Shown piece by piece: positions 1 through 16,885 of a stretch of DNA of 64,000 nucleotides. The stretch lies in the NCBI GenBank assembly GCA_963751705.1, contig CAVVVN010000008.1, positions 131,259-195,258 of the forward strand, in the 5' to 3' direction. This stretch comes from an uncultured Bacteroidales bacterium (GTDB lineage: Bacteria > Bacteroidota > Bacteroidia > Bacteroidales > GCA-2748055). The position numbers were made by a program, and so were the translations under genes. The notes below the pieces were generated by a model that saw only the letters and a list, made by a program, of their open reading frames with translations, did no database searches and was not told where the DNA came from. Within the stretch, counting starts at the first letter, position 1; every line of letters starts with the position of its first letter.

Positions 1-177
1 CTCTTTCCTTATATGCAGGCAGTTCGTTTCCTGATCGATTACCTGGATGGAGATACCTATTACAAAGTCAAACACCCGGAGCATAACCTGGTCAGAACCC
101 TGGCTCAGCTGAAGCTGACCAAAGATGGAGAGGCTAAAATGGATAAGCTAAGGACGATCATTAAGAAGCTTTCCTGA
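1..177 (+). CDS. 3' end of an unidentified gene (partial, runs off the left edge)
   Basis: Frame 1 is open from base 1 to TGA at 175-177 (...FLIDYLDGDTYYKVKHPEHNLVRTLAQLKLTKDGEAKMDKLRTIIKKLS*). It is missing from the ORF track only because it has no start in the window. Family not recognised. Confidence 0.4.
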   Translation, partial: LFPYMQAVRFLIDYLDGDTYYKVKHPEHNLVRTLAQLKLTKDGEAKMDKLRTIIKKLS

Positions 178-184
178 TAAAACC

Positions 185-802
185 ATGATTGTTGAAAAAT
201 TCACCGGACCAGAGACTCAGATTTTTTCAGTCCGGGCAGAGAATCCCCTGGCTTTTAAAAACTGGGTAGATATTGATGGAGTGTCAAGCGGCTTTTCCAT
301 CCGGCACGACGGGTCTTCCATACACCTCTATTACCAGGTCACAGAGAGCCATGTGAGGGCCTTAAGCACTGTTTATAACGGACCGGTATGGGAGGACAGT
401 TGTGTGGAATTTTTCTTCTCCCCGAATAAGGAAGGTAAGGAATACTACAATTTTGAGTTTAATGCCATTGGCACGGTGCTGGGGGGATATGGACCAGACC
501 GAAACCGGAGAGAGCATCTTCCGGAATCTGTGTTGAAGCAGGTGGAAACCACTCCCTCCCTGGGCCGGGAGCCCATCGAGGGAATCTATGGAGAAACTAC
601 CTGGACCCTCCGGGTCAGAATTCCCTTAAAAACCCTTGTATATAGCAAAATAGAAGACCTTTCAGGCCTGGATGCGCATGCAAACTTTTACAAGTGCGGG
701 GATAAGCTTGACCAGCCTCATTTCCTCTCCTGGAAACCGGTGCTAAATCCCACTCCGGATTTTCACACCCCCCGCTATTTCGGTCAGCTCTCTTTTATGT
801 AA
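185..802 (+). CDS. Small cytoplasmic CBM9-like / DOMON-like carbohydrate-binding-fold protein
   Basis: ATG at 185, 205 aa, no signal peptide. The motif run VWEDSCVEFFFSP..YYNFEFNAIGT..NFYKCGD..PHFLSW..FHTPRYFG matches my recollection of Bacteroidetes 'carbohydrate-binding family 9-like' proteins (not searched). Confidence 0.5.
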   Translation: MIVEKFTGPETQIFSVRAENPLAFKNWVDIDGVSSGFSIRHDGSSIHLYYQVTESHVRALSTVYNGPVWEDSCVEFFFSPNKEGKEYYNFEFNAIGTVLGGYGPDRNRREHLPESVLKQVETTPSLGREPIEGIYGETTWTLRVRIPLKTLVYSKIEDLSGLDAHANFYKCGDKLDQPHFLSWKPVLNPTPDFHTPRYFGQLSFM

Positions 803-825
803 GTTTGCAGAAAGATCAAATCTGC

Positions 826-1578
826 ATGGAAAAATCAGCTGATCAGCTTCAGTCTGAAAAGTTATTTAAAAAGATTTGCCGTAAAATTGGCACCACCATG
901 CGGGATCATCAAATGATTCTTGAAGGAGATCATTTGCTTGTGGGGCTCTCCGGTGGAAAAGACTCCATGATTCTGCTGGAAGCCCTTGCAGAACGCAAAA
1001 GGGCTCTCCCTTTTGAGTTCACGCTAACAGCTGCCCATGTTGAAGCCCAGGGGATCGGATATGAAATCGACAAGGAGAGATTGACCTCGTTTTGTGAAAC
1101 TCTTGGTATTCCTGTACTCTATCGGGCCATCCAGCCCGATCTTGAAAAAGATCCCTCGAAAACAGATTGTTTTATCTGCTCATGGTACCGCAGAAAAGAG
1201 TTGTTTAAACTTACGAAAGAATTGGGCTGCAACAAGCTGGCACTGGGACATCACAGGAAGGACGCCATTGAAACACTTCTTATGAATATGATCTACCACG
1301 GTTCCATCAGCTCCCTGCCCTACTCGCTAACCCTGTTTGAAGGCAGGGTACAACTGATCCGTCCAATGATGGATCTGGAGGAAAGAATGCTGGAAGATTA
1401 TGCCCGTCTGAACAATCTGGTTCAGGTGGAAAAGAGCTGTCCGCATGAGGATCGGACCCAGCGGGAGAAGATGGCCGGACTTATCAGGCAGGTGGAGGAT
1501 CTCCACGGTCCGGGACCCTACAATATGTTTAAATCGATGAACAAGATCTTTGAAGAGTACCTGCCGGTCAAACATTGA
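826..1578 (+). CDS. ttcA: PP-loop ATPase, tRNA 2-thiocytidine synthase (TtcA) family
   Basis: PP-loop LVGLSGGKDS, CxxC (CFICSW) plus a downstream Cys (SCPHED), and GHHRKD. About 250 aa. The track ORF begins at a TTG (805); the first ATG is at 826. Confidence 0.7.
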   Translation: MEKSADQLQSEKLFKKICRKIGTTMRDHQMILEGDHLLVGLSGGKDSMILLEALAERKRALPFEFTLTAAHVEAQGIGYEIDKERLTSFCETLGIPVLYRAIQPDLEKDPSKTDCFICSWYRRKELFKLTKELGCNKLALGHHRKDAIETLLMNMIYHGSISSLPYSLTLFEGRVQLIRPMMDLEERMLEDYARLNNLVQVEKSCPHEDRTQREKMAGLIRQVEDLHGPGPYNMFKSMNKIFEEYLPVKH

Positions 1579-2779
1579 ATTTTTGCATCTCCCTTTTTGC
1601 AAGGTCTGATTTGATCCGTCGGACCCGGCTGTCGTTCTGCACTCCTGTGAATCCCGCAATCACTTCGGATGGAACCTCCATCTCCAATGCATTTCTAATA
1701 AAGGTGTTTACAGCTATACCAGCGGTTAAACGCCTGTACAGGGGCTGCTTTTCTGCCCCGGCCGAATCAGAAGGTATAATCCTGGTAAGGCCGATCTCCT
1801 TTCCCATGATCCTGAGATATTTATTCATGGTGATAAGGCTCATGGATGGGAAGGCCGTGCCATTTATATAGTATTTGTTCTCGTATTTCTGAAAAATAGC
1901 GGAAGCATATTTGTTCAGGGGAATAATTCGCAATCCACTCCCAGGCTTCCTTACAAGGACCTCATCCACTTTCAAATCCTCCTTTTTCAGCGCCTGTATT
2001 TCAGAATACCTGATGCCTGCAAAACACATAAAACAAAACAGGTCCCTGGCCCTCTCCTTCCGTATGTTGTCTGTAGAGAAATCCATCAGTTTCATTAACT
2101 CATCCCAATGTAGGTACAGAGGCATTTGAGACAGTTGCAGGGTAGCATTCATTCGTTTATAAAACTGCCTGTACTCACGATAGACATTATAGCCCCTGTC
2201 GGTGGCCCAGTTTAGAAACCATACCAGGTTGTTTACTGATTTATACGTGGTGGAAGGTTTATATCCTCTCTCAGCACAAAAGTTTACAAATCCATCCAGG
2301 AATTGTCCATCCATTTTATGAAAGGAGATGGAGGTCTCTGACTGGTCCTCAAATTCACGCAAGAGCTTATAGAGTGTCCTGACCTTTCGATACGTAGCGC
2401 TACTCCAGGCGGAACTCTCACTTTCCATAAATTGGTAGAAGAGATCAAAAAAGCCGCTCATGTATTTTGGTTTCAATTGCTGAAATATCTCGCGAAAACT
2501 CCCTGAGCTTAACTCTCTTCCAGAATACTTCAGTCCTTCTAAAGTTCTGGAAGCAATAGTCTGCAAAGAATCTAACCTGTTATTCAGATCCCGGGCATCC
2601 GGATAAAATGATCGGATCCTTTGCAGATCCGGATCCCATCCATTTTTATCCACCTTCACTCCGGTACCGATTTTAACCCGGTTTCCGCCAAAAGTAACAC
2701 TCATAAATATCGGGCAATCCAGGGAACGTATATTCCCGGTTTCATCCTTGCGCTTCTCTATATGGAACCGTGTTCTCAT
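1568..2779 (-). CDS. Tyrosine-recombinase-fold (integrase-like) protein lacking the catalytic His/Arg/His/Tyr residues
   Basis: 403 aa. N-terminal Arm-type region (MRTRFHIEKRKDETGN..) and a core-binding domain. The first catalytic Arg context is kept (ARDLFCFMCFAGIRYSEI). The C-terminal box reads LTAGIAVNTF...AGFTGVQNDSRVRRI instead of xTxHxxRHTF...LGHxxxxTTxxY. The 3' end overlaps ttcA by 11 nt (convergent). Confidence 0.8.
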   Translation of the reverse strand: MRTRFHIEKRKDETGNIRSLDCPIFMSVTFGGNRVKIGTGVKVDKNGWDPDLQRIRSFYPDARDLNNRLDSLQTIASRTLEGLKYSGRELSSGSFREIFQQLKPKYMSGFFDLFYQFMESESSAWSSATYRKVRTLYKLLREFEDQSETSISFHKMDGQFLDGFVNFCAERGYKPSTTYKSVNNLVWFLNWATDRGYNVYREYRQFYKRMNATLQLSQMPLYLHWDELMKLMDFSTDNIRKERARDLFCFMCFAGIRYSEIQALKKEDLKVDEVLVRKPGSGLRIIPLNKYASAIFQKYENKYYINGTAFPSMSLITMNKYLRIMGKEIGLTRIIPSDSAGAEKQPLYRRLTAGIAVNTFIRNALEMEVPSEVIAGFTGVQNDSRVRRIKSDLAKREMQKFNV

Positions 2780-2836
2780 CTTTTACAAGTATAGCCTGAA
2801 ATACAACTATGCAGGACAGATTTTATCAATAATCCG

Positions 2837-2844
2837 TAATTTTG
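2837..2844 (+). promoter_or_regulatory. Exact TAnnTTTG (-7 type) Bacteroidetes promoter box immediately upstream of the mnmD-like start
   Basis: TAATTTTG at 2837-2844, 4 nt before ATG 2849. This would imply a leaderless or near-leaderless mRNA. No -33 element was evaluated. Confidence 0.3.
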
Positions 2845-2848
2845 CCCG

Positions 2849-3508
2849 ATGGAGAGAAAGATATTACTTACTGCGGATGGCTCCCATACCATCTTTGTAT
2901 CTGGGATGGATGAACCATATCATTCCACCCATGGTGCTCTCCAGGAATCCAGGCATATCTTTATTAAGCATGGTCTTCAAACCGTAAAGAAGAAGTCTGT
3001 CAGAATCCTGGAGTTGGGATTCGGGACCGGACTGAACGCTCTTCTCACTTTAATTGAATCGATTCCGCTTGATCTGGATATATATTACCACACTGTTGAA
3101 AAGTATCCCCTTGTAGATTCTGAATACAAGAGATTGAACTTCGAAAAGCTGGCGAAGCAGTCGCCGAAAGGTGCACTGCAAGGTTTTCATAGCAGTCCCT
3201 GGGGAGAAAGCGTTCAAATTTCGGACAACTTCACTCTTTTCAAAGAAAAAGCAGACTTCAGGTCAATGAATCCCCCCCCGCATATCAACCTGATCTACTT
3301 CGATGCCTTCTCACCAGATAAACAACCTGAATTGTGGACGAGTTCTATTTTCGATACCATTTCCCGGGCTGCAGATCCCGGAGCCATTCTGGTTAGCTAT
3401 TCTTCCAAAGGCCTTGTTCGTAGAGCTCTAACCTCCAGCGGATTCGAAGTTCATAAAGTTGCGGGACCCCCTGGAAAAAGAGAGATGATCAGAGCCATTA
3501 AAATATAA
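2849..3508 (+). CDS. mnmD: SAM-dependent tRNA (mnm5s2U34) methyltransferase, MnmD / MnmC-methyltransferase-domain family
   Basis: 219 aa. N-terminus ...LLTADGSHTIF..MDEPYHSTHGALQES.HIFI and SAM motif ILELGFGTGLNAL. YFDAFSPDKQPELW is typical of stand-alone MnmC-like methyltransferases. Confidence 0.65.
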   Translation: MERKILLTADGSHTIFVSGMDEPYHSTHGALQESRHIFIKHGLQTVKKKSVRILELGFGTGLNALLTLIESIPLDLDIYYHTVEKYPLVDSEYKRLNFEKLAKQSPKGALQGFHSSPWGESVQISDNFTLFKEKADFRSMNPPPHINLIYFDAFSPDKQPELWTSSIFDTISRAADPGAILVSYSSKGLVRRALTSSGFEVHKVAGPPGKREMIRAIKI

Positions 3509-3567
3509 TTGTGTGGTCTATAATATTTCTTTTAACTTCGCAGGCATTATTAAAAAAAAGAATTTAC

Positions 3568-4287
3568 ATGAATAACAAACAGATTATCACACTCATTGTA
3601 GTAGCAGTTGCAGCCCTGGCTGTAGGATACTTTATCGGAACAGGCACCAGCGGTGTTAAATCTGAAAGTCAGATCACCATGAAAAACAAGGCTGACTCAC
3701 TTAACTATTTTCTAGGTTTAAACTGGGGGTACAGCGTTGGCGAAGCTCCCTGGGAGATCGATGCTGACCTGCTTGCGGCTGGCCTGCTTCAGGTGTTAAA
3801 AGATAGTTCATCGTTTGATCCGATGAGTGCACAAACCGTATTTCGCGATTTAAGCGTGTCTTTTTCAGATGCTGAAGCTAAAAAAGCTGAAGAAGAATCC
3901 ATGAAAACCATGGAAGATGGAATCGCCTTCCTGGAAGAAAACGGAAGAAGAGAAGAGGTTATAACCACCGAATCTGGATTGCAGTATGAAGTAATCACTA
4001 AAGGTGATGGACCTATGCCTGATGAAACTTCAACCGTTTCCGTGTTTTATGAAGGTACCCTTATTGACGGGACAATATTCGATAGCAGCTACGAAACTAA
4101 CGACACTATTTCTTTCCCCTTAAACGGGGTGATCCCGGGATGGACAGAAGGACTCCAGCTTATGCCGGTAGGATCCACCTACAAATTCTTTATTCCGTCG
4201 AACCTTGCGTACGGATCCAGAGCCACTGGACCAATTCCTGCCAATTCTACTTTAATCTTTAAAGTTGAATTGCTGGAAGTAAAATAA
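3568..4287 (+). CDS. FKBP-type peptidyl-prolyl cis-trans isomerase, membrane anchored
   Basis: ATG at 3568 (the track ORF starts upstream at GTG 3511). N-terminal TM IITLIVVAVAALAVGYFIG. C-terminal FKBP domain GLQYEVITKGDG...VFYEGTLIDGTIFDSS...GVIPGWTEGLQLMPVGSTYKFFIPSNLAYG. Confidence 0.85.
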   Translation: MNNKQIITLIVVAVAALAVGYFIGTGTSGVKSESQITMKNKADSLNYFLGLNWGYSVGEAPWEIDADLLAAGLLQVLKDSSSFDPMSAQTVFRDLSVSFSDAEAKKAEEESMKTMEDGIAFLEENGRREEVITTESGLQYEVITKGDGPMPDETSTVSVFYEGTLIDGTIFDSSYETNDTISFPLNGVIPGWTEGLQLMPVGSTYKFFIPSNLAYGSRATGPIPANSTLIFKVELLEVK

Positions 4288-4310
4288 GACCTTGATTGAT
4301 CATTAAAAAA

Positions 4311-4341
4311 GGCTGTCCGCCATGCGAACAGCCTTTTTTTT
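4311..4341 (+). terminator. Rho-independent terminator after the FKBP gene
   Basis: GGCTGTCCGC (4311-4320) pairs with GCGAACAGCC (4324-4333) with one mismatch. A T8 run follows at 4334-4341 and an A6 run precedes at 4305-4310, so it could act bidirectionally. Confidence 0.65.
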
Positions 4342-4416
4342 AATCATAGATCGAATTGTGGCTATCTTCAATATACTATCCTTAAATTTATACCCTAACT
4401 GAAAAAAAAATCAAGT

Positions 4417-4833
4417 ATGAGCTTCGAGATAAATGGCCGCCTGGCAGAAAAATTCGAAACACAGAAAGTCTCGGACCGGTTCCAGAAACGCGAATTTGTC
4501 CTTGAGATAAAATCAACCGGTAATACCGGATACGAATTTGTTGATTTTATAAAGTTCCAGTCCACACAGGATAAATGCTCACTGCTGGACCAGTTCAATC
4601 AGGACGATATTATTAAAGTTTCCTTTAACCTAAGAGGTCGCAAATGGGAAAAAGATGGACAGGTATCGTATTTTACTAATCTCGAAGCCTGGCGCATCGA
4701 AAAAGTATCTGGCGATTCAGGCGAAGAACCGGAAGGTGAATTCCCAATTGAGTCCAGTGATTCCAGTCAGGATGCTCCCTTTCCCTCTACTCCTCCCGAG
4801 AATGATTCCGGGTTTGATGATCTGCCATTTTGA
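4417..4833 (+). CDS. DUF3127-like OB-fold protein with an acidic/Pro-rich linker and SSB-type C-terminal tip (DDLPF)
   Basis: 138 aa. The N-terminal ~95 aa (MSFEINGRLAEKFETQKVSDRFQKREFVLE...SFNLRGRKWEKDGQVSYFTNLEAWRIE) resembles DUF3127. The tail SGDSGEEPEGEFPIESSDSS..ENDSGFDDLPF ends like bacterial SSB (DDDIPF). Confidence 0.7.
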   Translation: MSFEINGRLAEKFETQKVSDRFQKREFVLEIKSTGNTGYEFVDFIKFQSTQDKCSLLDQFNQDDIIKVSFNLRGRKWEKDGQVSYFTNLEAWRIEKVSGDSGEEPEGEFPIESSDSSQDAPFPSTPPENDSGFDDLPF

Positions 4834-4862
4834 AAACTTGAAAACAAAAACAAAACCCCTAA

Positions 4863-5726
4863 TTAATTTTTGGCAGAAACATCAATCCGGCTCTCTTCTA
4901 CCGAGCGATAATGCTTCGGGGTCACACTTTTTACTGGAATTCTAAATTCAATGGTAATACCTTTAAAAGTACTGTCTGTTACCATGAGTTCTCCCTTCAT
5001 GGATTTTACCAGTCCACTTGCCAGCTTATAGCTAAGTGTAATCGTATCGTTAGTATTGTACCAATCCTCCTCTTTATCAGTCGTATCAAAGATCTTTCTG
5101 ATTTCGTCCTGTAGCAGCATGCTACTGCTGTCCTTGATGGTAAAAATCAGTGTATTTTTATCGGCGAACGATGCGCCAAACTCTATGACTCCTTTTTTTG
5201 TCTGGGCCAGGGAATTTTCAATCAGGCAGCTTAAAGCTCTCGACAGGCGTTGCTTATCAGCAATGATTTTCGCCTTTTTAAATGCCTCTCTGACATTTAA
5301 TAATAAGGCGACCCTTTCCCTGTTTAACCTGTATCGATCCATATTATACTTATCGTATAAATCCTTCAACAGATCATAAATCGCTACTTCATCCTCCTTC
5401 AGTTGAAGATTTCCTGTTTCGATCAGGGTCAGATCAATCAGGTTGTCCATCATGTTTAAGAGCGAATTGCTATTCCGGGTAATATGGTCAATGTATGCGT
5501 CCCTCTGATTGCCATCCACATCTTCATCACCAAGAAGGTGGGAAAAACCGATGATGGCATTCATGGGAGTCCTGATCTCATGCGAGATATTGGATAGGAA
5601 CCTGGTTTTCACCCTGGTACCGTCGGACTGAAACTGTTTCAGCGTGTCCTCCAGCATCGCAACCTTCTGCTCCAGTTGCCTGGTGTAATCCAGAAGCTCA
5701 TTATAGTCAGGATTTTTTCCCATCAC
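4863..5726 (-). CDS. Soluble orphan sensor histidine kinase (HisKA + atypical HATPase_c)
   Basis: 287 aa with no TM segment and an N-terminal coiled coil. H-box SNISHEIRTPMNAIIGFSHLL and N-box-like LIENSLAQTKKG. G1 (IKDSSSM) and G2 (TLSYKLASGL) lack the usual glycines. No response regulator nearby. Confidence 0.7.
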   Translation of the reverse strand: MMGKNPDYNELLDYTRQLEQKVAMLEDTLKQFQSDGTRVKTRFLSNISHEIRTPMNAIIGFSHLLGDEDVDGNQRDAYIDHITRNSNSLLNMMDNLIDLTLIETGNLQLKEDEVAIYDLLKDLYDKYNMDRYRLNRERVALLLNVREAFKKAKIIADKQRLSRALSCLIENSLAQTKKGVIEFGASFADKNTLIFTIKDSSSMLLQDEIRKIFDTTDKEEDWYNTNDTITLSYKLASGLVKSMKGELMVTDSTFKGITIEFRIPVKSVTPKHYRSVEESRIDVSAKN

Positions 5727-5791
5727 CCATTATTCAGCAATATTTCAATTATCAGTTATACCAATCCTCACTCCGAGGGGTAATTGTAAAA

Positions 5792-6547
5792 TTATTGCTT
5801 CATCCGTTTAAGGATCTTCGCAGCTTTATCTTTATAGTAATGATTTGAGGATGAGGCAATCTTGGCCAGTTTTCTCCTGGCATTATCAGTTTCATCCATT
5901 GCAAGCAAACATCCTGCAAGATACCATTCGGCCTTTTGGATATAAAGGTTGTCATCATGCTCTATAACCCTGACAAAGGATTCGCTTGCTTCCTGGTGCT
6001 GATCAATTTCCATGTAAGATACGCCCATGTAGAAATCGGCTTCCATCTTATTTGAATTGATTTCCAGTACCTCGTCGAAACAATCAATGGCTCCCTCAAA
6101 TTCTCCTTTGAGAAAATGATCCTGGGCCTTATTCATCCAATACGTGGTAACTTCGTTGTCAACAGAACGGTTCGTAAGAACCAGTTCATAGGGTTTCATG
6201 TACTTGGCAAATAAATCATTATTAGAAAGTGGCCGTCCAAGTACAGTGGCCAGACCTATGGCCACCAACAGAGCGAGTGCTGCCGATGCTGCATAGTGCC
6301 ATGGCCGAGTGAATCGAAAAACCCTTTTTCCGGTCTCCGATCTTCGTGTCTCTTCCCGCAAGTCAGTCAACTGGGTCCGAAAGTCCAATACTTCAGTATC
6401 GGCAATGGCTTCATCAACCTCCTTATAGAGGTCAAGGTCCACCAATAACTCCGGACTGGCGTTGAGCTCCTGCTCAAACCTGGCCAACTCCTTCTCTGAG
6501 AGCTCGTTGTCCAGGTACTTTTGTAAAATGTGCCTGTCGCGTTTCAT
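5792..6547 (-). CDS. Single-pass membrane protein: anti-sigma-like N-terminal helix region + C-terminal TPR domain
   Basis: ATG at 6547 (MKRDRHILQKYLDNELSEKELARFEQEL...); the track ORF is extended upstream to 6676. TM WHYAASAALALLVAIGLATVLG. TPR-like repeats (FLKGEFEGAIDCFDEVLE.., FYMGVSYMEIDQHQEASESF.., WYLAGCLLAMDE..). No sigma factor adjacent. Confidence 0.7.
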   Translation of the reverse strand: MKRDRHILQKYLDNELSEKELARFEQELNASPELLVDLDLYKEVDEAIADTEVLDFRTQLTDLREETRRSETGKRVFRFTRPWHYAASAALALLVAIGLATVLGRPLSNNDLFAKYMKPYELVLTNRSVDNEVTTYWMNKAQDHFLKGEFEGAIDCFDEVLEINSNKMEADFYMGVSYMEIDQHQEASESFVRVIEHDDNLYIQKAEWYLAGCLLAMDETDNARRKLAKIASSSNHYYKDKAAKILKRMKQ

Positions 6548-6670
6548 ATCAATAAATATTAAATTAGTGTCAAGTATGCAGGACCCACGTACACCCATTC
6601 CTGGCCATACATTTGGAACCTGTACTCCCTGGTATAAGTATGCACGCTTGCATACCTTCCAGAGTATTAT

Positions 6671-6686
6671 GCACAATTAATTGTGC
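6671..6686. promoter_or_regulatory. Perfect 16-bp palindrome GCACAATTAATTGTGC in the intergenic region upstream of the TM-TPR gene
   Basis: Read directly at 6671-6686. It lies ~125 nt upstream of ATG 6547 (minus strand) and ~145 nt downstream of the GG-peptide stop. No T-run follows on the minus strand, so an operator is more likely than a terminator. Confidence 0.35.
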
Positions 6687-6831
6687 GTCAATTCAGGAAT
6701 TTCCGTTTCCGGATTTTCCTAACCGATTAGTTGTTCCAGGATACAACTCCCCTGTTCAACTTCACGGATTTATATGTCTTGCGGTCATAGGACCGTCTTA
6801 ATTTCTAATCAAAATTTCCAATTAATCCGAT

Positions 6832-6957
6832 TTACCTTGTTGGAGGATGTACCAAATCTTCAACAGGATCTCCTTTGGACAGTCCACCTTTCAAATAATT
6901 CAGTTCAGTTTTCTTGATAGCATCGTTTGCAAATGATTTCAAATTGACAGTTTTCAT
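6832..6957 (-). CDS. Unannotated 41-aa peptide with a Bacteroidetes GG-type leader (putative exported/modified peptide precursor)
   Basis: Hand translation of the minus strand from ATG 6957 to TAA 6832-6834 gives MKTVNLKSFANDAIKKTELNYLKGG|LSKGDPVEDLVHPPTR. The leader matches the pattern M-K-x-x-x-L-x-x-F/L...L-x-K-x-E-L-x-x-I/L-K-G-G of GG-leader natural-product/bacteriocin precursors. It is too short for the ORF track. Confidence 0.5.
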   Translation of the reverse strand: MKTVNLKSFANDAIKKTELNYLKGGLSKGDPVEDLVHPPTR

Positions 6958-7023
6958 GGCTTTTCAATTAGGGGTTCAACTTCTCTTTGTTTTTGTTTTC
7001 AATAGTTAATTCCAGAAAAGCAG

Positions 7024-7032
7024 CAAACGTTA
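7024..7032 (-). promoter_or_regulatory. Candidate Bacteroidetes promoter (-7 box TAACGTTTG) for the GG-leader peptide
   Basis: The minus strand reads gggTAACGTTTGctg (plus-strand caaacgtta at 7024-7032), which contains TAnnTTTG. A TTTA sits ~21 nt further upstream. About 67 nt from ATG 6957. Confidence 0.3.
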
Positions 7033-7187
7033 CCCGGAAAAGTGAACTTTTTTTAAACTTTTTTTCTCACACAAGTGCATATGATTGATTTTATGGAGTT
7101 TAATTGCAAATATAAAAATCGGCCATTTATCAGAATTACTTGCATCCTATCCCATTATTTCTTTCATTTACGCTATATTCTTCATAA

Positions 7188-10031
7188 ATGAAACAGGTCC
7201 TTAGATATCGCATTCTCTGTGTTTGCTAATTCTTGCATGCTTCATCCAATCTCCAGGATCGGCACAGGAAAGTAGAGGAGGATCCCGAACTGGTCGACCT
7301 GATCTTTGACATCAGCAATAAGGCTTATAACTATTTCAAGATCAATATCAACCTGGATTCGGCCGAATACTATTATAAAAAAGCCATCGACCTTGCCTAT
7401 AGCTCCAGCAACTACAATATCGACGACCGGGTAGCCAATAATTACATTTCCCTGGCTTCTTTGTACCGAGAAATTTACAATAATAGTGCTGCCCTGGCAT
7501 ATATGAATGAGGCCGAAAGGATATTAAAGAAAAATGATCCCAATCACAGTTACTTTGGGACCATTTACCACAACAAGGGAAATATTTATAAAGTACAGAA
7601 TGACCTGTACAGAACAAAGGAGTATTACGAATATGCCCTGGATTTCTTAATCAAAAATGGCTACCAGAATTCAATGATTTTACCTTCTGTCTATTCCAAC
7701 TATGTTGAGTTGCTATTTGAACTGGAAGAATATGAGCTTGCTGAGGAAAAACTTATCAACGATTGATCTAAATAGATTAGATGTTAGTCCAATTATTGAA
7801 TTTCGACTTCACAATACAAATGCTTCATTATACTCCCAGCTTGGAAAGTATGAACTTGCGAAAGACGACATTTCGAGAAGTCTCAAAAATTACTTAGTGA
7901 TCCACCAGGATTGAAAGAGTACACTGATGAAATCATTAATTACTACTATGATTTGATTGGATTTTATATGTTCTATGAGGAGAATGATATAGCGCTGAAA
8001 GAATGTGACAATGCCTACATGTTTATTGAGACCCTGGATCCACACGCAATTAAATCCAAGATTCATTTACCACTCTGATATATCATACCGTGCTGCCACC
8101 ATACATTATCGAAAAGGGAATCTTGAAAAGGCGTTATGGATTGTCAACAACAGCATCAAGGATCTAAATCTCTTCCTCAGTCGATTATCTACACTAGGGA
8201 TCAAATAGTTCCCGAACTAATGAATTAGCTACAGGTCTTCCGGAGCTTCATGTATTAAAAAGTCGGATTCTTTTCAATCAATTCAACCGATCCAACGAAT
8301 TTAAAGATCTACTTAATTCCTATGAAGCCTATAAAAAGGCTATTGAAATTCTGAATTATATGAAGCTGGCCATGACCGATGAGGATAGCCGGGTATTTGC
8401 TACTTCCCAGATCCTGGAGGTATATACGGAGGCGGTTTATATCGGGAAGATGCTTTTCGATCTGACCGGTGAATTCAAATACCTGGAACAATCCTTTGAG
8501 TTTGCTGAGACCAGCAAGTCCTTTGCCCTCTATAGTGAGATTAAGGATATGGAGGCCATGCAGTTTTCCGATCTGCCCGAAGATATCAAACAACAATGAA
8601 AAACGCTTTATGGGGGAGATACAGGCTTATGAGGAATTCCTCTATACTGAGCAGATTAAAACCGATCCGGATAGTTCCCAGATCGAATTTTTTAAGGAAA
8701 CCCTGTTTCACCTGAAAGATGACTACGACGGCCTCTACAAAGACATTGAGGAGAATTACCCAAAATACTATGAGTTAAAGTATAAGCCAAACTTTATCTC
8801 CCTGGAGGAAGCTCAGGGCAAACTTGCCTACCGGGATGCCTTGATTGAATATGTGCTGTCCGATAGTCTGCTTATTACCTACGTTGTCGACAGAAAAGGA
8901 ATCAATGTGTTTTCGCAGGAAATCGGGCCTGAGTTTGCCGGTGAATGTATGGAGTATTATATGCTCCTTAACAATCAGAATTTTAGTGGGGGGGTTCACG
9001 AAAACTACCGGAGGTATGTGAATCTTGGGCATAAGTTATATACGACATTGATAGAACCCTGCCTGCAATATACCGACAGGAAAAACTTTACCATCATTCC
9101 CGACGGTGCGATTACCTATATTCCTTTTGAGGGGCTGCTTACAGAGACCACAGATACGGAATATATCAATTACTTGGATCTGCCCTATTTGATTAAGGAG
9201 TATTCTGTGGGATATTCCCACTCTTCAACCCTCCTGTTCAGTGAGCGATACCAATCCAAATCCCCTGAAGAAAAGGTGCTCGCTTTTGCTCCGATATATG
9301 TGAATTCTCTCAACACCATGGATACGGCAGAATTTCGCCAGGTGGCTGAGAATTCAGATTTCCTCTTCCCTCTGGTGGGAACCATAAAAGAGGTACAGAG
9401 CATTAATGAAACCGTTCCTTCCAGGGTTTTTATGAATGAACAGGCTACGGAAGCTAATTTTAAAAAGTATGCTGCCGACTACAATGTGCTGCATCTCGCC
9501 ATGCATACCATCATGAAAGATGATTCCCCACTGTTATCTTTGCTGGCTTTTACAAATGTGGATACGGGCGACACCATAGAGGACAACCGGCTCTATGCTT
9601 ATGAAATCTATAACATGAAGCTGAATGCCCAGATGGCAGTCCTGAGTTCCTGCAACAGTGGTACTGGTAAAATGCAAAAAGGGGAAGGGATGATGAGCCT
9701 GGCCCGCGGATTTATTTACGCAGGCTGCCCCTCAATTATTATGACCCTGTGGCAGGTGGCCGATAAATCAAGTTCGGAGTTGATGACCTCCTTTTATAAG
9801 TACCTGAAAAGGGGGAAAAGCAAGCAGGAAGCCATGCGGCTTGCAAAAATAGATTACCTGGAAACCGCTGACGATCTAACCTCTAACCCCTATTTCTGGT
9901 CAGGATTTGTGGTGCTGGGTGACGGAAGCCCCATATACCGAAAATCAGGATTCGCTTACTGGATGATCGTCATTACCCTGTTTGCAGGGATTGTAATTTT
10001 TCTTCAGTTCCGGAAATCTAAAATCAACTAA
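7188..10031 (+). pseudogene. TPR-CHAT domain protein with a disrupted N-terminal half (pseudogene or truncated derivative); C-terminal CHAT domain and TM anchor intact
   Basis: ATG 7188 (MKQVLRYRILCVC) runs into an in-frame TAA at 7227-7229. TPR-like sequence then continues through frames 3>1>3>1>2>3, with switches near 7760, 7912, 8075, 8210 and 8590. From about 8610 a clean 473-aa reading frame carries CHAT motifs (VLHLAMHT, AVLSSCNSGTGK, SLARGFIYAGCPSIIMTLWQVAD) and a C-terminal TM. Confidence 0.65.
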
Positions 10032-10087
10032 CCCGAGAAAGCAACCTGGCCAGACGCACAAATTTGGACACTACCAATGGAAGAAGG

Positions 10088-11572
10088 TCAATCCCATTCA
10101 GGTACAGGCAAATGTTCAAAACGGTTGCCACAACTTTGGTTACAAGATTTTAACCACATTATCAAAGAATCTGTCATTTGAGAAACGATCTCCGGTTGAT
10201 AATCCGCTATGTTATTTTTTTCGTAAGGATCTATAGATAAGTCATATAGCTGAACATCTGTCAACTGACCATCTATTGTTGTTGTAATTAATTTATAAGT
10301 CTGTGTCATCCAGACTGCATTTTTTGAGTATGCAAATCCAATGGGATTATTTCTTATTATTTGAGTGCCTCTAATTGCATCGGAAATATCAATACCATCT
10401 TGAGGTTGGTTAACATCATAACAACTTTCTCCAATTAAATGCATTATAGTCGGCAACATATCTGACGTGACGCAAGGCATTGACACAACTTTTGGTTTCG
10501 GAAAAGCAATTGGATAAAGCAGGACACTCGGAATCCTAATTCCTCCTTCGTACAATTCTCCTTTCCAGCCCCTGAAAGGTTTATTTGAGCCATACCCTCC
10601 ATACTCAGAGAATTTTTTATTGTATTTTGCAGCTCCGTTGTCAGCACAAAACCAAATTAGAGTGTTTTTTTCCTGACCTGTTTTTTTTAGAGTATTTATT
10701 AACCGGCCAATTTGCTCATCCATTGCAGTAATGGCTCCATAGTGGTGTTTTCCTTCCTCCCCTTCATACATATCAAGGTATTTTCCACCACTAATCGTTG
10801 GAGTATGAGGAGCATGGAAGCAGATATAAGCAAAAAATGGATGAGCTTGGCTTGCATTTATTTCAACAAACGGGATTACCCTATCCATAATAACCCGGCT
10901 GTCATCACCCGAAAGGTTATCATCATGGGCTATCATTTCCCCTTTATGGTTCCAATAATTGTTTCCCCAGAGACCTGTTTCCTCACGTTTTTTCATTCCC
11001 CAATCTCCTTTATCGGGTAATAGCATAGGATCCCATGTAGGCACCACATTCTCAGTACTAAAACACTCATCAAATCCATTTATCCAAGGTGGACTGAAAT
11101 CGGTTTCAGGCTTTCTTGGACCAGCAACATAATCTTTATCTCCTTTATCCAGCAGTCCTAAATGCCATTTCCCAAAATGCCCTGTTGCATATCCTTTTTT
11201 TTTGAGTAATTCTGAAATTAAAACATCATTATCCGCAACATGCGAGCTACCCCAATGAGAAATTCCAAGACGGGCTCCGTTTTGCCCGGTAACTATTGAT
11301 GCACGGGTTGGAGCGCAAACAGTAGAAGCTGCGTAAAATCGATCGAAACGAACTCCTCTATATGCCATTTGATCAAGCGTTGGGGTTTTTTGAATCTTAT
11401 TGCCATTGTAGCCAGTATCACCCCATCCCATATCATCGGCAACAATAACAATGACATTTGGAAATTCTTTGTATTTGGGTTCATCCGACTGAGATGAACA
11501 TGAAGTTAACCATGGTGCAATTATCAGAACAGTTAAATAGTAATGCAGAAAAATAAAATATACTCTTTTCAT
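10088..11572 (-). CDS. S1-family sulfatase (Cys-type formylglycine), lipoprotein
   Basis: 494 aa. Signal ..APWLTSCSS. PNVIVIVADDMGWGD, FGly motif STVCAPTRASIVTG, GKWHLG, and a C-terminal LYDLSIDPYEKNN. Confidence 0.9.
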   Translation of the reverse strand: MKRVYFIFLHYYLTVLIIAPWLTSCSSQSDEPKYKEFPNVIVIVADDMGWGDTGYNGNKIQKTPTLDQMAYRGVRFDRFYAASTVCAPTRASIVTGQNGARLGISHWGSSHVADNDVLISELLKKKGYATGHFGKWHLGLLDKGDKDYVAGPRKPETDFSPPWINGFDECFSTENVVPTWDPMLLPDKGDWGMKKREETGLWGNNYWNHKGEMIAHDDNLSGDDSRVIMDRVIPFVEINASQAHPFFAYICFHAPHTPTISGGKYLDMYEGEEGKHHYGAITAMDEQIGRLINTLKKTGQEKNTLIWFCADNGAAKYNKKFSEYGGYGSNKPFRGWKGELYEGGIRIPSVLLYPIAFPKPKVVSMPCVTSDMLPTIMHLIGESCYDVNQPQDGIDISDAIRGTQIIRNNPIGFAYSKNAVWMTQTYKLITTTIDGQLTDVQLYDLSIDPYEKNNIADYQPEIVSQMTDSLIMWLKSCNQSCGNRFEHLPVPEWD

Positions 11573-11602
11573 AATCTGGTTTTACGGAAGGAGGTCAGCT
11601 AC

Positions 11603-13060
11603 TCAATTTGAATGGCGGATATCTTCATATTGCTTCCTTTTTTCTTGTAGCTGAATTTTCATACGAGCAAAAACATCTGCGAATTCAGTATCATAAATTA
11701 AACTAACCATTTCCTGGGGATCATTTCTCATATCGTATAATTCCCATATGGGCTCTTTCTCTGCTTCGTAAAAATGGATTAGCTTAAAATCTTTTGTTCG
11801 GATCCCGTAATGCGACGGTACCTCAAACTGTCCGAAATAATGATAAAAATGAGCTGACAGCCAGTCATCGGGCGTTTCACCACTGAGAATCGGCTTCATA
11901 GACTTTCCTTGAAATTCTTTGTGTATTTCTATTCCGGCATAATCAAGAAAGGTTGGAGCCAGATCAAGCATTGAAATAAACTCATCTGATATAGCTGGTT
12001 TAACTTCCTCCGGATAACGAATAATCAAAGGCACATGTAATGACTCTTCATACATCCACATTTTATTAAATAATCCATGGTCTCCCATAAACCATCCATT
12101 ATCCGAGGTATATATTACAATCGTATTATTCTTCAGTCCCGAGCCATCCACAAAACCAACAAGCCGCCCAATGTTTTCATCCAATGCTGCAACAAGCCGG
12201 TAATACCCTTTATAAATACTTTGATAGGCCCATTTTTGGTAATCCTGTGTCCCCATTTCAATTGTATCGGGGACTTTTTCATTAAAATGCGCAGGATAAA
12301 TGGTTGACAATTTTGAATATCCACATTTGTTGTTTCTCAATTCCGAATTCTTGCCTTCGAATGTATCGTAGAAATTTTCAGGTTCGGGAAGTATAGTATC
12401 GGCGAATATTTTCTCATACTTTTCAGGATAATGATAAGGTCCATGAGGTGCTTTGTGATGTACTAGCAGACAGAAGGGTTTCTCTTTATCCCTGTTTTTC
12501 AACCAATCAATTGCTATATCGGTAATTACTTCCGTAAGATAACCCGGTTGCACTACCCCTCCATCTCCACCATTTTGCCATTCCTGGCCCGTCTCTTTCA
12601 TCGGGCAATCAAAAAACTGTCCCTGATAAGGGATCACATTATAATAATCGAACCCGGCAGGTTGTGATACAAGATGCCATTTACCAATAACACCTGTTTC
12701 ATACCCAGCTTGCTGCAAGAGTTTGGGAAAATTTACCTGGTTTCGGTCAAAGCTGTCACCGTTGCGCATGTACCCATTATGAACGCTGTACTTCCCTGAA
12801 AGAATTGATGCCCTGCTCGGACCACAGAGCGAAACGACGTTAAAACAATTCGTGAATCTCATTCCCTGTTCTGCCAACTTATCAATGTTGGGTGTAGCCA
12901 GAAGTGAATTCCCATAAGCACTTACGGCCCCCACACTATGATCATCGGCCATTATGAAAATTATGTTGGGCCTTTGGGAGATCTCCTCCTGTTGGTTGCT
13001 GGTACAGGAAATAAATAATAAGTTCAGACAGATCATTAAAACATGGATTGTTCTATTCAT
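11603..13060 (-). CDS. S1-family sulfatase (Cys-type), lipoprotein
   Basis: 485 aa. Signal ..LLFISCTS. PNIIFIMADDH, FGly motif SLCGPSRASILSG, GKWHL, TSDNGWFMGDHG, and ELYDMRNDPQE. Confidence 0.9.
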   Translation of the reverse strand: MNRTIHVLMICLNLLFISCTSNQQEEISQRPNIIFIMADDHSVGAVSAYGNSLLATPNIDKLAEQGMRFTNCFNVVSLCGPSRASILSGKYSVHNGYMRNGDSFDRNQVNFPKLLQQAGYETGVIGKWHLVSQPAGFDYYNVIPYQGQFFDCPMKETGQEWQNGGDGGVVQPGYLTEVITDIAIDWLKNRDKEKPFCLLVHHKAPHGPYHYPEKYEKIFADTILPEPENFYDTFEGKNSELRNNKCGYSKLSTIYPAHFNEKVPDTIEMGTQDYQKWAYQSIYKGYYRLVAALDENIGRLVGFVDGSGLKNNTIVIYTSDNGWFMGDHGLFNKMWMYEESLHVPLIIRYPEEVKPAISDEFISMLDLAPTFLDYAGIEIHKEFQGKSMKPILSGETPDDWLSAHFYHYFGQFEVPSHYGIRTKDFKLIHFYEAEKEPIWELYDMRNDPQEMVSLIYDTEFADVFARMKIQLQEKRKQYEDIRHSN

Positions 13061-13085
13061 TGCTTTTCTATCTTAGAAGTATAGT

Positions 13086-14390
13086 TCACTTGGATATACC
13101 TACACTGCTTTCTAATTCTATGATTGCATCATATAAAACCCCTGCGGATCCCTTAAATTTTTCAGATCCACGAGGTTGATTATCTAAAGTGTACCATTCC
13201 ATGAAATCATCATTTTTAATAACTCTCTGTACAAGAGGAATTAAATGTTTATACGCCTCTTCTAAATAACCATATCTGACTAGTTGCTTTACCATTCGAG
13301 CCCCAAACCAGGTCCAGTCACCACCATTTTGATAGGTATATGGAATTTCCAATTGAGGATTCTTGATAAATCCTTTTGGATAGGCTGGTTCTACAGATAA
13401 CCCAATGGAGGAAGCATTCACTCGCTTCATTCGTTTCTCCATTTCCTTCAGTGTTATCAGAATTTCATCTGTCGATAGTATTCCAGCTTCTATGGCTACG
13501 GCAGTTCCTCCAAAATAAAACACCTCCTTCTCGTTAAAACTCTCTGGGAATGGAGACTTATCCAGATATATATGTGGAATAAATTTATTGTTTTCACTAT
13601 CCCAAAGATACTTACGGACATTTTCAACCAATTGCTTTTTGAACGATCCAAATTTCTCTTCAGATTCAGGGACCATGTCAAACAGATTATTTAATGCCAC
13701 GATAAGCATTGCATTATCATAGATATCAATAGCAAGATTTGTTTTATCGTCCATATAAACTCCCCAGCTACTTTCAGGTTGTACATCACCCCAATCTATC
13801 GTAGTTGCACCAAATATAAGCCCATACTTCTCGCTATACCGGTTTTGCAATAAAAACTCAATGGCTAATTCCATTCGTTCTTTAACTGTTCTATCTCCTA
13901 CTTTATCAAGCAAAATAGTTTTGTCATTTGTGTGCTTAATATATTTATAAACAGCTTGAATAAGAGAACTTTCCTGGTCGGTTTCGACCGTTGCTTTATC
14001 GCCGGCATATTCCGGCGCCAAAGATGAACGATATTGGAAACTTGATGAATTTGGACTTAAATTTTCCCGGGGAGTGATTACATCCAGAATACTTCCATTT
14101 TCTTCCTGCATTTTGAAAAACAACAACAAATTCTCTTTTGCTTGTTCAGGAGGATTTACCAATAAAGCAATGTTCATAAACGTATTATAATCTCGAATAA
14201 AAACTTGATTTGTATACCCCGAGCCAGCATCAAATCCTTCCTTTATTGTGTGAAGGGCCTTTTCTTTTACAATCGCAAGATTCTTATCATCCTTTACTAT
14301 TATTCTCAATTTTTCAATCGATTTATCTTGTTCGGTTGCACACATAACTTGTGTAACAAGAATAATTGTAATTAATCCTAGTTTTTTCAT
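13086..14390 (-). CDS. Six-hairpin (alpha/alpha)6 glycoside-hydrolase-like protein, GDE_C/GH63/GH100-like superfamily, family unassigned (paralog of 22429-23730)
   Basis: ATG at 14390 (MKKLGLITIIL..; the track extends to 14426). Motifs GSGYTNQVFIRD, VETDQESSLIQA, TTIDWGDVQ, IDIYDNAMLIVAL and YQNGGDWTWFG recall amylo-1,6-glucosidase/neutral-invertase-type barrels. Confidence 0.6.
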   Translation of the reverse strand: MKKLGLITIILVTQVMCATEQDKSIEKLRIIVKDDKNLAIVKEKALHTIKEGFDAGSGYTNQVFIRDYNTFMNIALLVNPPEQAKENLLLFFKMQEENGSILDVITPRENLSPNSSSFQYRSSLAPEYAGDKATVETDQESSLIQAVYKYIKHTNDKTILLDKVGDRTVKERMELAIEFLLQNRYSEKYGLIFGATTIDWGDVQPESSWGVYMDDKTNLAIDIYDNAMLIVALNNLFDMVPESEEKFGSFKKQLVENVRKYLWDSENNKFIPHIYLDKSPFPESFNEKEVFYFGGTAVAIEAGILSTDEILITLKEMEKRMKRVNASSIGLSVEPAYPKGFIKNPQLEIPYTYQNGGDWTWFGARMVKQLVRYGYLEEAYKHLIPLVQRVIKNDDFMEWYTLDNQPRGSEKFKGSAGVLYDAIIELESSVGISK

Positions 14391-14450
14391 ATGATTGCTA
14401 TATAAAATTAAGCGATCGAAAACCACCCGATATATATAGAAAAGTAAAAC

Positions 14451-16867: not shown

Positions 16868-16885
16868 AGAAAATTCTTTAAATCC

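Follow-up and report, generated by a model that had tools for sequence, protein, structure and literature searches.

A 41-codon open reading frame (ORF) on the minus strand of a 64,000-nucleotide stretch of DNA from an uncultured Bacteroidales bacterium (contig CAVVVN010000008.1; "the window" below means this whole stretch) is a conserved gene for a precursor peptide with a double-glycine (GG) leader. The short core behind the leader is conserved from its C-terminus, and the gene has an invariant place in its locus, between a divergent gene for a tetratricopeptide repeat (TPR)-CHAT protease and genes for a single-pass transmembrane (TM) TPR protein and an atypical histidine kinase. Judged by sequence comparison, the core has diverged together with the N-terminal TPR block of the protease, which is predicted to lie in the periplasm. 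We propose tentatively, and with somewhat less than even confidence, that the peptide is an exported ligand or substrate of a TPR-CHAT/anti-sigma-like circuit and the first gene of a lineage-specific regulatory module. The gene and its parts are:

6832..6957, minus strand: precursor peptide gene, 41 aa (ORF scan, homologues, frame test, profile matches)
6957-6883, minus strand: leader, codons 1-25, MKTVNLKSFANDAIKKTELNYLKGG
6882-6835, minus strand: core, codons 26-41, LSKGDPVEDLVHPPTR
6834-6832, minus strand: stop codon TAA

The 41-codon ORF is a gene under purifying selection

The ORF scan and translation gave MKTVNLKSFANDAIKKTELNYLKGGLSKGDPVEDLVHPPTR, followed by a stop, at 6832..6957 on the minus strand. 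A preliminary description of this DNA had placed a small gene here and translated it by hand; coordinates and translation were both exact. The mere presence of a 41-codon ORF is uninformative, because the first 14 kb of the window contain 132 ORFs of at least 30 aa. A single-sequence search returned 32 homologues (38-42 aa, 67-98% identity). Profile searches gave 230 matches at E≤1 in a 5.8-billion collection and, among 1.8 billion representatives, 16 short family peptides (35-72 aa) together with two repetitive long proteins of 495 and 1,627 aa. At least 181 distinct homologous peptides of 35-56 aa were gathered, by searches and from fetched loci (numbered with the prefix L), in Bacteroidota metagenome-assembled genomes (MAGs) and metagenomes, and the named source genomes were all Bacteroidota/Bacteroidales MAGs. 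Gene calls for homologues exist in JGI, ENA and NCBI assemblies, mostly under the name "hypothetical protein", a few (JGI) as "natural product precursor".

Over 63 distinct DNA alleles, the ratio of nonsynonymous to synonymous polymorphism (pN/pS) was 0.35 in the annotated frame, versus 0.97 and 1.42 in the two shifted frames. Diversity was 0.44 at third codon positions, 0.24 at first and 0.17 at second positions. The ORF lengths range from 117 to 129 nt, meaning that all indels are in frame, and the length variation sits directly after the GG. We conclude that the ORF is a real, conserved gene under purifying selection, as the preliminary description had supposed. No second or paralogous GG peptide was found in the window. 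In one metagenome contig (L065:10322-10480), the first ~14 nt of the peptide ORF, ATG included, are deleted; the promoter motif described below and the remaining locus are intact.

A GG-class leader and a core anchored at its C-terminus

In the family alignment, leader residues M1, K2, T3, F9, L19, L22, K23, G24 and G25 are invariant, and I14, E18, N20 and Y21 nearly so, I14 (position -12) and E18 (position -8) being kept in at least 90% of the members. The pattern is thus one of hydrophobic residues at -4, -7 and -12 and an acidic residue at -8, ahead of the Gly-Gly. By part, pN/pS was 0.18 for the 25-aa leader versus 0.45 for the core.

The preliminary description had assigned the first 25 residues to the Bacteroidota double-glycine leader class and had suggested a search against models of such leaders. 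This search gave TIGR04149 as the sole NCBIfam match, with 15 bits and an E-value of 0.017 for the window peptide, below the curated cutoff of the model. TIGR04149 was matched at E≤1 by 60 of 62 diverse family members (best E 4.3e-7). The streptococcal ComC model NF033214 was matched at E≤1 by 7 of the 62 (best 7.3e-4), the window member not among them. A Pfam scan of the window peptide gave no match, and no bacteriocin family of Pfam or NCBIfam was matched, apart from one member at E 0.12. By these profiles, the peptide belongs to the GG-leader class, at the fringe of TIGR04149.

The core is 12-17 aa long, and its conservation is anchored at the C-terminus, with the signature D-[LI]-[LIV]-x-P-P-x-[RK]-COOH. 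Counted from the C-terminus, the conserved positions are:

Position -8: D, in 176 of 180 cores
Positions -7 and -6: L, I or V, in 176 and 175 of 180
Position -4: P, in 175 of 180
Position -3: P, in 176 of 180
Position -1: R or K, in 178 of 180

The residues that adjoin the GG differ in number and kind across the family. As had been described, Cys is absent from the window core, and Pro and acidic residues are frequent in it; family-wide, a Cys is present in just 2 of the 180 cores. From its sequence, the core resembles a linear motif for recognition, ending in a free, basic C-terminus, rather than a cross-linked natural product, and an unmodified or lightly modified peptide is the best reading of its 16 residues. 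The calculated monoisotopic mass of the unmodified core is 1758.93 Da.

An invariant locus with a divergent CHAT gene

The gene order is the same in every sufficiently extended locus: a divergent CHAT gene (940-980 aa) comes first, then ~230 nt of intergenic DNA, the peptide gene, ~207-292 nt of spacer, the gene for the TM-TPR protein, ~65 nt, and the kinase gene. The arrangement was seen in all of the first 16 loci, then in further loci down to 59-61% protein identity. The window features are:

7188..10031, plus strand: TPR-CHAT (caspase-like) protease gene, divergent and disrupted (tblastn of the intact L002 protein against the window)
8469-10031, plus strand: intact C-terminal CHAT ORF with His/Cys dyad and C-terminal TM helix (Pfam CHAT, 200.9 bits)
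6548..6831, minus strand: 284-nt spacer from the peptide stop to the TM-TPR ATG, candidate structured RNA
5792..6547, minus strand: single-pass membrane TM-TPR protein, 251 aa, ATG at 6547
4863..5726, minus strand: atypical histidine kinase, soluble, 287 aa, with N-terminal coiled coil, HisKA (H-box HEIRTP) and HATPase_c

The preliminary description had correctly named the two downstream neighbours, the TM-TPR protein and the protein with HisKA and a weak HATPase_c domain, and had missed both the divergent TPR-CHAT gene and the conserved structured RNA.

Intact CHAT proteins of 939-981 aa are encoded in 14 loci. They have a signal peptide, the His motif LHLAMH, the Cys motif LSSCxSG, and a C-terminal TM helix with basic residues behind it. 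Signal peptide and C-terminal helix together place the protease and its TPRs, by prediction, on the periplasmic side. The window copy of the gene is interrupted by a TAA in frame behind codon 13 (7227-7229) and by additional stops, and its reading frame changes three times before residue ~460, near 7717, 8200 and 8600. The CHAT gene of L001 is also broken, at other places; in most other loci it is intact, and in L117, a close relative, the N-terminus is intact.

The TM-TPR protein consists of a cytoplasmic anti-sigma-like N-domain of ~80 aa, a TM helix at ~83-104, a periplasmic linker at 105-127 (GRPLSNNDLFAKYMKPYELVLTNRS) and about three TPRs at 128-251. Positive residues precede the TM helix and the TPRs follow it. 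Residues 77-127, i.e. TM helix and linker, are invariant in 29 homologues, and the cytoplasmic domain is nearly so; the TPRs vary. In Pfam the protein matches TPR_1/TPR_2, and a profile search of the PDB gave generic TPR matches only. It has 265 homologues, and among the 120 listed all are at least 78% identical. The anti-sigma-type family zf-HC2 is matched, below threshold, by 27 of the 29 homologues (best E 3e-4).

The kinase scores 60.6 bits with HisKA and 26.0 bits with HATPase_c (cutoff 26.4), with no other domain in Pfam. Its G1 box is degenerate (KDSSNML) family-wide, in a comparison of 40 loci. The G2 box (~5000-5050, residues ~226-233) reads TLSY only in the lineage of the window, L001 and L109, versus GLGY in nearly all others.

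The core co-diverges with the TPR block of CHAT

Mantel tests were used to compare distances between cores (last 12 aa) with distances between segments of the neighbouring proteins. The correlations with the core were:

CHAT residues ~33-200 (N-terminal TPR block): rho 0.68, p 0.0002, n=33
CHAT residues ~33-200, full-length CHAT set: rho 0.61, p 0.0002, n=12
Own leader: rho 0.37, p 0.0002, n=33
TPR domain of the TM-TPR protein: rho 0.27, p 0.04, n=12
Kinase: rho 0.18, p 0.10, n=12
N-domain of the TM-TPR protein: rho 0.16, p 0.08 (not significant), n=23
Catalytic (C-terminal) half of CHAT: rho 0.02, p 0.44, n=12

Co-evolution of the core with the periplasmic domain of the TM-TPR protein was rejected, as no signal beyond phylogeny was found (partial rho 0.19, versus 0.21 for the kinase control). 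A peptide-signal/receptor arrangement had been raised as a speculation in the preliminary description, with the two downstream proteins on the receptor side. This general idea is the one that gains most from the evidence. The partner is a different one, namely the CHAT TPR block; for the receptors first suggested there is no significant correlation with the kinase, and a weak one with the TPR domain of the TM-TPR protein.

Allele turnover at the locus is seen among close relatives. The window and L001 agree without mismatch over ~14 kb, most of a 17-kb span, yet at ~5750-8600 they differ by up to 27%, with 37 indel columns. This tract comprises the 5′ half of CHAT, the intergenic DNA, the peptide gene (6 of 41 residues differ) and the 3′ end of the TM-TPR gene. 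In L117 the TM-TPR protein is 100% identical to that of the window, the peptide is a third allele, and the intact CHAT N-terminus is a different one. Recombination of this tract or diversity of alleles probably explains the hotspot, the alternative being an assembly that is chimeric between strains. Co-divergence and allele pattern together would look like what is expected for a matched ligand/sensor pair exchanged by recombination. A diversity-generating retroelement was discarded as the source of the hypervariability, as the spectrum is not adenine-specific (143 transitions and 111 transversions, evenly spread, between window and L001). A second mismatch cluster between the same two sequences, 14 in 500 nt, lies at 15750-16250, inside a sulfatase/glycosidase region.

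The same correlations bear on the idea that the peptide never leaves the cell. It would then be an intracellular modulator made of an amphipathic helix, a GG hinge and a tail that binds the cytoplasmic domain of the TM-TPR protein or the kinase, in the manner of the small modulators of two-component kinases. The lack of an exporter nearby would fit, as would a kinase without a sensor domain of its own, the near invariance of the cytoplasmic TM-TPR domain, and the common orientation of the three genes. However, the likeness to GG export leaders is family-wide, and the core tracks the periplasmic TPR block of CHAT, not the TM-TPR N-domain (0.16) or the kinase (0.18). We consider this modulator role very unlikely.

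An exactly conserved promoter-like motif and a sister subfamily

Two elements are conserved upstream of the peptide gene:

7005..7035, minus strand: promoter-like motif GGGTAACG-N14-GGAATTAAC, ending 47 nt 5′ of the peptide ATG
6965..6976, minus strand: box AACCCCTAATTG in the 5′ untranslated region (5′-UTR), from a 16-locus alignment, just 5′ of an A-rich stretch and the ATG

The window has a single copy of the promoter-like motif, versus 0 expected by chance, and no additional ones. Of 24 loci, 21 hold the region; each of these has one copy, always ~47 nt 5′ of the peptide ATG, and the motif is exact in every locus containing the region. Used as a probe on metagenomes, it gave 92 matches, with a family peptide following in 50; ~38 of the 92 were dropped as chance matches, the motif having 17 specified bases.

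Promoters of extracytoplasmic function (ECF) sigma factors have an 'AAC' -35 element followed by a T-tract. The -35-like half of the motif, GTAACgTTT, may accordingly be read as an ECF-sigma-like promoter; the -10 half has no match that can be named. A literature search for the motif found no relevant paper. Readings as a sigma-54 promoter or as a promoter of the Bacteroidota sigma-A type (TAnnTTTG) were set aside by eye, as either the spacing or the conserved bases misfit. A canonical TATATTTG is found at 7114-7107 in the window, but relatives do not keep it. The TAnnTTTG-type box that the preliminary description had placed ~67 nt upstream is actually TAACGTTTG at 7032-7024, in which TA and TTTG stand three bases apart instead of two. 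The last G of the box differs among relatives, and the box is part of the longer conserved motif.

The AACCCC core of the 5′-UTR box is also found in the sister subfamily described below. A 10-nt repeat links this box with the spacer downstream of the peptide: it occurs as GAAGTTGAAC-CCCT at 6965-6976 and as GAAGTTGAAC-AGGGG at ~6745-6760 (minus strand). Complementary CCCC and GGGG come after the two copies, and a long-range pairing bracketing the peptide ORF is possible.

Main-family loci are, from their sequences, one vertically inherited locus. A sister subfamily (L054 and L099) has the same gene order and an identical promoter motif, with a TM-TPR protein 37% and a CHAT protein 44% identical to those of the main family. 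Its peptide (L054:91-249; at the contig end in L099) has a longer leader and another core, MKTLNAFLNGQTKKGTISGFENCALGSEAMNKVRGG/DGGPTTDIWIPDEERR (core ...DIWIPDEERR), and shares with the main family only the core signature D-[IL]-x-x-P and the basic C-terminus. We take this subfamily as independent support, at the level of sequence, for a functional unit. In L099, an ECF-type sigma gene (3060-3650, minus strand; Sigma70_r2 31 bits, r4_2) lies tail-to-tail with CHAT. Homologues of it are found 1.6-5 kb beyond CHAT in three main-family loci (L006:1370-1939, L008:4771-5340, L049:2318-2896). The ECF-type sigma genes are preceded by an M64 peptidase gene.

These data can be set against the view of the preliminary description, that the peptide is an orphan precursor of a bacteriocin or of a ribosomally synthesised and post-translationally modified peptide (RiPP). 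Such a TIGR04149-class precursor would be matured by radical-SAM/SPASM or other enzymes, exported by a peptidase-ABC exporter (PCAT) from elsewhere, and active on other cells, and its neighbours would be a matter of meaningless synteny. TIGR04149 as the sole NCBIfam match, reached by 60 of 62 members, is in line with it, as are the JGI label "natural product precursor" on some members and the equal synteny of unrelated neighbours. GG-leader precursors are, moreover, often encoded apart from the C39 peptidase (PMC8939145). As that description had said, the window has no exporter or maturase: neither the ABC signature (LSGGQ) nor CxxxCxxC occurs in its ORFs of at least 180 aa, by a motif scan, not a full hidden Markov model scan. 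But no maturase is found in any locus, and the Pfam families Radical_SAM and SPASM are absent from the genes within ±10 kb of the relatives. Furthermore, the cores, Cys-free in 178 of 180 and 12-17 aa long, are unlike both the Cys-bearing targets of radical-SAM enzymes and bacteriocins of ~40 aa, and they are conserved across the family, not hypervariable. There is a single copy per genome region, without tandem precursors. An exact dedicated promoter, together with the same architecture in a sister subfamily 37-44% identical, argues for a functional unit, and the core co-diverges with the CHAT TPR block. In short, the peptide is part of a fixed operon-like module in every sufficiently long locus, and the "orphan" label does not suit it; we regard a RiPP or bacteriocin role as unlikely.

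The spacer is a candidate structured RNA

The spacer, 284 nt from the peptide stop to the TM-TPR start codon, is predicted to fold into six hairpins:

6795-6782: hp1
6767-6723: hpA
6720-6695: hp2, with a GAAA loop
6686-6671: hp3
6664-6627: hp4
6622-6579: hp5

In the window, its minimum free energy is -89.4 kcal/mol (z = -5.9 versus shuffles). A structure of 54 pairs is 94.4% paired over 50 distinct sequences. Double-sided changes were found at 34 of the 54 pairs, versus 13 ± 2 in shuffles (0 of 500 reach 34) and 17-22 in slid controls; the structure was derived from the window sequence, and only pairs at least 80% paired were retained, both of which choices favour this covariation result. RNAalifold was also applied to the alignment. 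The clearest helices are hp4 (pair 226/241: CG 27, UA 20) and hp5 (pair 289/308: UA 24, CG 12). The spacer is more conserved than the peptide ORF. The covariance models of Rfam 15 gave no match at E≤1 in window positions 6000-8000, and the RNA is single-copy per locus, with no further copies in the window. The spacer is therefore retained, on comparative grounds, as a candidate new structured leader RNA. Two other readings were rejected. A coding spacer, as part of a 294-aa TM-TPR ORF with a TTG start, is opposed by indels not divisible by 3 and by the compensatory pair changes. For hp1 as an intrinsic terminator on the peptide strand, there is no U-tract after the hairpin, and the terminator-like match is on the opposite strand.

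A structured, covarying RNA directly downstream of a short ORF would fit a cis-acting role for that ORF: a stop-proximal pause of the ribosome would remodel the 284-nt RNA and so control expression of the TM-TPR protein and the kinase. An arrest peptide of this kind would agree with the anchoring of conservation to the stop codon, the Pro-Pro at -4/-3 and the basic last residue. It would also agree with the location of the ORF and the downstream genes on one strand, without an obvious promoter or canonical terminator between them. Yet the most constrained part is the N-terminal 25 aa (0.18 versus 0.45 for the core), and these match a family of export leaders that arrest does not need. The variable core positions diversify with a periplasmic neighbour, which is unexpected if the conserved ribosomal tunnel were the sole partner, and the best-supported hairpins begin ~37 nt past the stop, outside the footprint of a terminating ribosome. 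We hold an arrest function to be improbable.

A proposed circuit

In Myxococcus xanthus, DdvA is a TM anti-sigma factor with a periplasmic TPR-CHAT part, for which self-cleavage in the linker has been proposed; its signal is still elusive (PMC11506125). The parts of DdvA are here split into separate proteins, with a GG-leader peptide between them under its own promoter, and this split leads to the following proposed sequence of events. The leader would direct cleavage after the GG, and export, by a PCAT encoded elsewhere. The released core would bind the N-terminal TPR sensor of CHAT through its conserved C-terminus, either as a ligand or as a mimic of a substrate or product. The CHAT protease would then attack the TM-TPR protein at its invariant periplasmic linker, and this would alter the output that the cytoplasmic TM-TPR domain and the kinase direct at the promoter driving the module. 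Of this scheme, the architecture, the topologies as read from sequence and the co-divergence are what the data show; export, binding of the core, linker cleavage and the feedback loop are inferred.

A more elaborate version would make the peptide the determinant of a "pherotype". The CHAT TPRs would read its free C-terminus, and the protease would clip the anti-sigma-like protein and thereby switch on the ECF-type promoter of the peptide's operon. The structured RNA and the kinase, with its degenerate ATP lid, would tune the output, and strains would exchange alleles of peptide and sensor as a unit. Taken as a whole, this elaborate circuit is rather doubtful.

Several observations weigh against a ligand or substrate of CHAT. 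The 15 bits of the window peptide are to be compared with a curated TIGR04149 cutoff of 25 bits. No exporter, C39 peptidase or response regulator was found in the window or within ±10 kb of the relatives, and the window has no homologue of the L099 sigma gene. For the anti-sigma-like assignment, zf-HC2 scores only 16.9 bits on the TM-TPR protein (cutoff 22.2), without Cys ligands, and the shallow alignment left the AlphaFold2 model too poor for a judgement (mean predicted local distance difference test score 52.6). Gene order by itself is no proof of function, because the main-family loci are orthologous and unrelated genes beyond the kinase (DUF3127, FKBP, methyltransferase) show the same degree of synteny, down to 59-61% identity. 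With only ~230-770 nt between the peptide gene and the 5′ end of CHAT, recombination tracts that cover both could account for the co-divergence. Finally, CHAT is a pseudogene in the window and in L001, the peptide ORF being intact nonetheless.

With CHAT broken and the G2 box of the kinase mutated, the circuit may be decaying in this genome, and the broken CHAT gene would mean either such decay or a variable tract mis-assembled from mixed strains. Pushed further, the first possibility makes the window peptide gene a remnant without current function. Several stops and frameshifts in CHAT, in both window and L001, are compatible with this, as are a G2 box mutated only in this lineage and a sulfatase/glycosidase cluster that has replaced the region beyond CHAT. 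On the other hand, four elements are undamaged in the window, namely the ORF of the peptide, the promoter motif, the spacer with its RNA, and the TM-TPR gene. The breaks fall where strains vary, in what is probably a MAG, and may have arisen by chimeric assembly, and the close relative L117 has an intact CHAT N-terminus. That the peptide gene has lost its function here is, in our judgement, quite improbable.

Relation to known systems

Returning to the proposed ligand or substrate of CHAT, its locus shares features with several known systems. TIGR04149 (GG_sam_targ_CFB), a model for RiPP precursors of the Cytophaga-Flavobacteria-Bacteroides group, describes leaders of ~25 aa that end in GG, with hydrophobic residues at -4/-7/-12 and an acidic one at -8, from Bacteroidota. 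The present family differs by a score below cutoff, a Cys-less core, the lack of an adjoining radical-SAM/SPASM maturase, a single copy under its own invariant promoter, and a neighbourhood that is regulatory rather than biosynthetic.

The streptococcal precursors ComC, of the competence-stimulating peptide, and BlpC, of a bacteriocin pheromone (with ComAB/ComDE), offer a close parallel in layout: a 41-aa precursor, a GG leader of ~24-25 aa, a core of ~16-17 aa, a peptide gene that comes first in the sensor operon, and strain-level alleles of the peptide and a linked sensor segment. Here, in contrast, the phylum is Gram-negative, the kinase is soluble and atypical, the candidate sensor is a TPR-CHAT protease rather than a polytopic kinase, and the locus has no response regulator or ComAB-type exporter.

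The likeness to DdvA extends to the periplasmic TPR-CHAT with its His-Cys dyad, a TM protein that crosses the membrane once and may have an anti-sigma-like N-terminus, a membrane-adjoining linker as plausible cleavage site, and, in the sister locus L099, an adjacent ECF-type sigma gene. Unlike in DdvA, TPR-CHAT and anti-sigma-like protein are separate and divergently transcribed in all loci. The module has three further members, namely the GG-leader peptide gene, the candidate structured RNA and the kinase; most loci lack an adjacent sigma gene, and a defence-island context is absent. Type III-E Craspase (Cas7-11, the TPR-CHAT protein Csx29, Csx30, Csx31, sigma) is similar in that an activated TPR-CHAT cleaves a partner controlling a sigma pathway, but it is cytoplasmic and activated by RNA, whereas the present protein is predicted to be periplasmic and has no CRISPR context. 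An assignment to anti-phage defence was likewise rejected: PADLOC gave no match at the locus for CHAT, the TM-TPR protein, the kinase, the peptide or the DUF3127 protein.

TPR domains that read short linear peptides are known from the RRNPP receptors (Rap, NprR, PlcR, PrgX), PEX5 and Hop. A conserved free C-terminus of the ligand would fit the binding mode of PEX5 and Hop, and weak profile matches to these occur among generic TPR matches. RRNPP receptors differ in being cytoplasmic and from Firmicutes, with peptides exported by a Sec-type route, and no specific homology to them is shown here. Class II bacteriocins and bacteroidetocins, for their part, are ~30-60 aa long, usually with a disulfide, an immunity gene and an exporter, versus a Cys-free core of 12-17 aa here.

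A literature search found no paper linking CHAT proteases with GG-leader peptides. To our knowledge, peptide-based cell-cell signalling is well described in Firmicutes and not in Bacteroidota, and we know of no established activating signal for a bacterial TPR-CHAT protease outside CRISPR systems. Considered as a sequence arrangement, the locus presents the GG-leader peptide theme in a new, lineage-specific form, within a TPR-CHAT/anti-sigma-like module for which the above function is proposed. It supplies a small, synthesisable candidate ligand encoded beside a putatively periplasmic CHAT protease, a natural series of alleles, and an exactly conserved promoter usable as a reporter, which makes activation of a periplasmic CHAT protease directly testable. 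It suggests that GG-leader peptides named "natural product precursor" can sit in regulatory circuits, and it yields a candidate new structured RNA motif as well.

Surroundings of the module

Elsewhere the window consists of large genes that form one long cluster on the minus strand. L001 covers window positions 1-16954, and its matching genes are sulfatases and glycosidases; this is the cluster that replaces the region beyond CHAT. On the other side, the DUF3127 protein (4417-4833, plus strand) probably has a housekeeping role and would mark where the module stops. It ends in an acidic tail, ...GFDDLPF, like the C-terminal tip of single-stranded-DNA-binding proteins.

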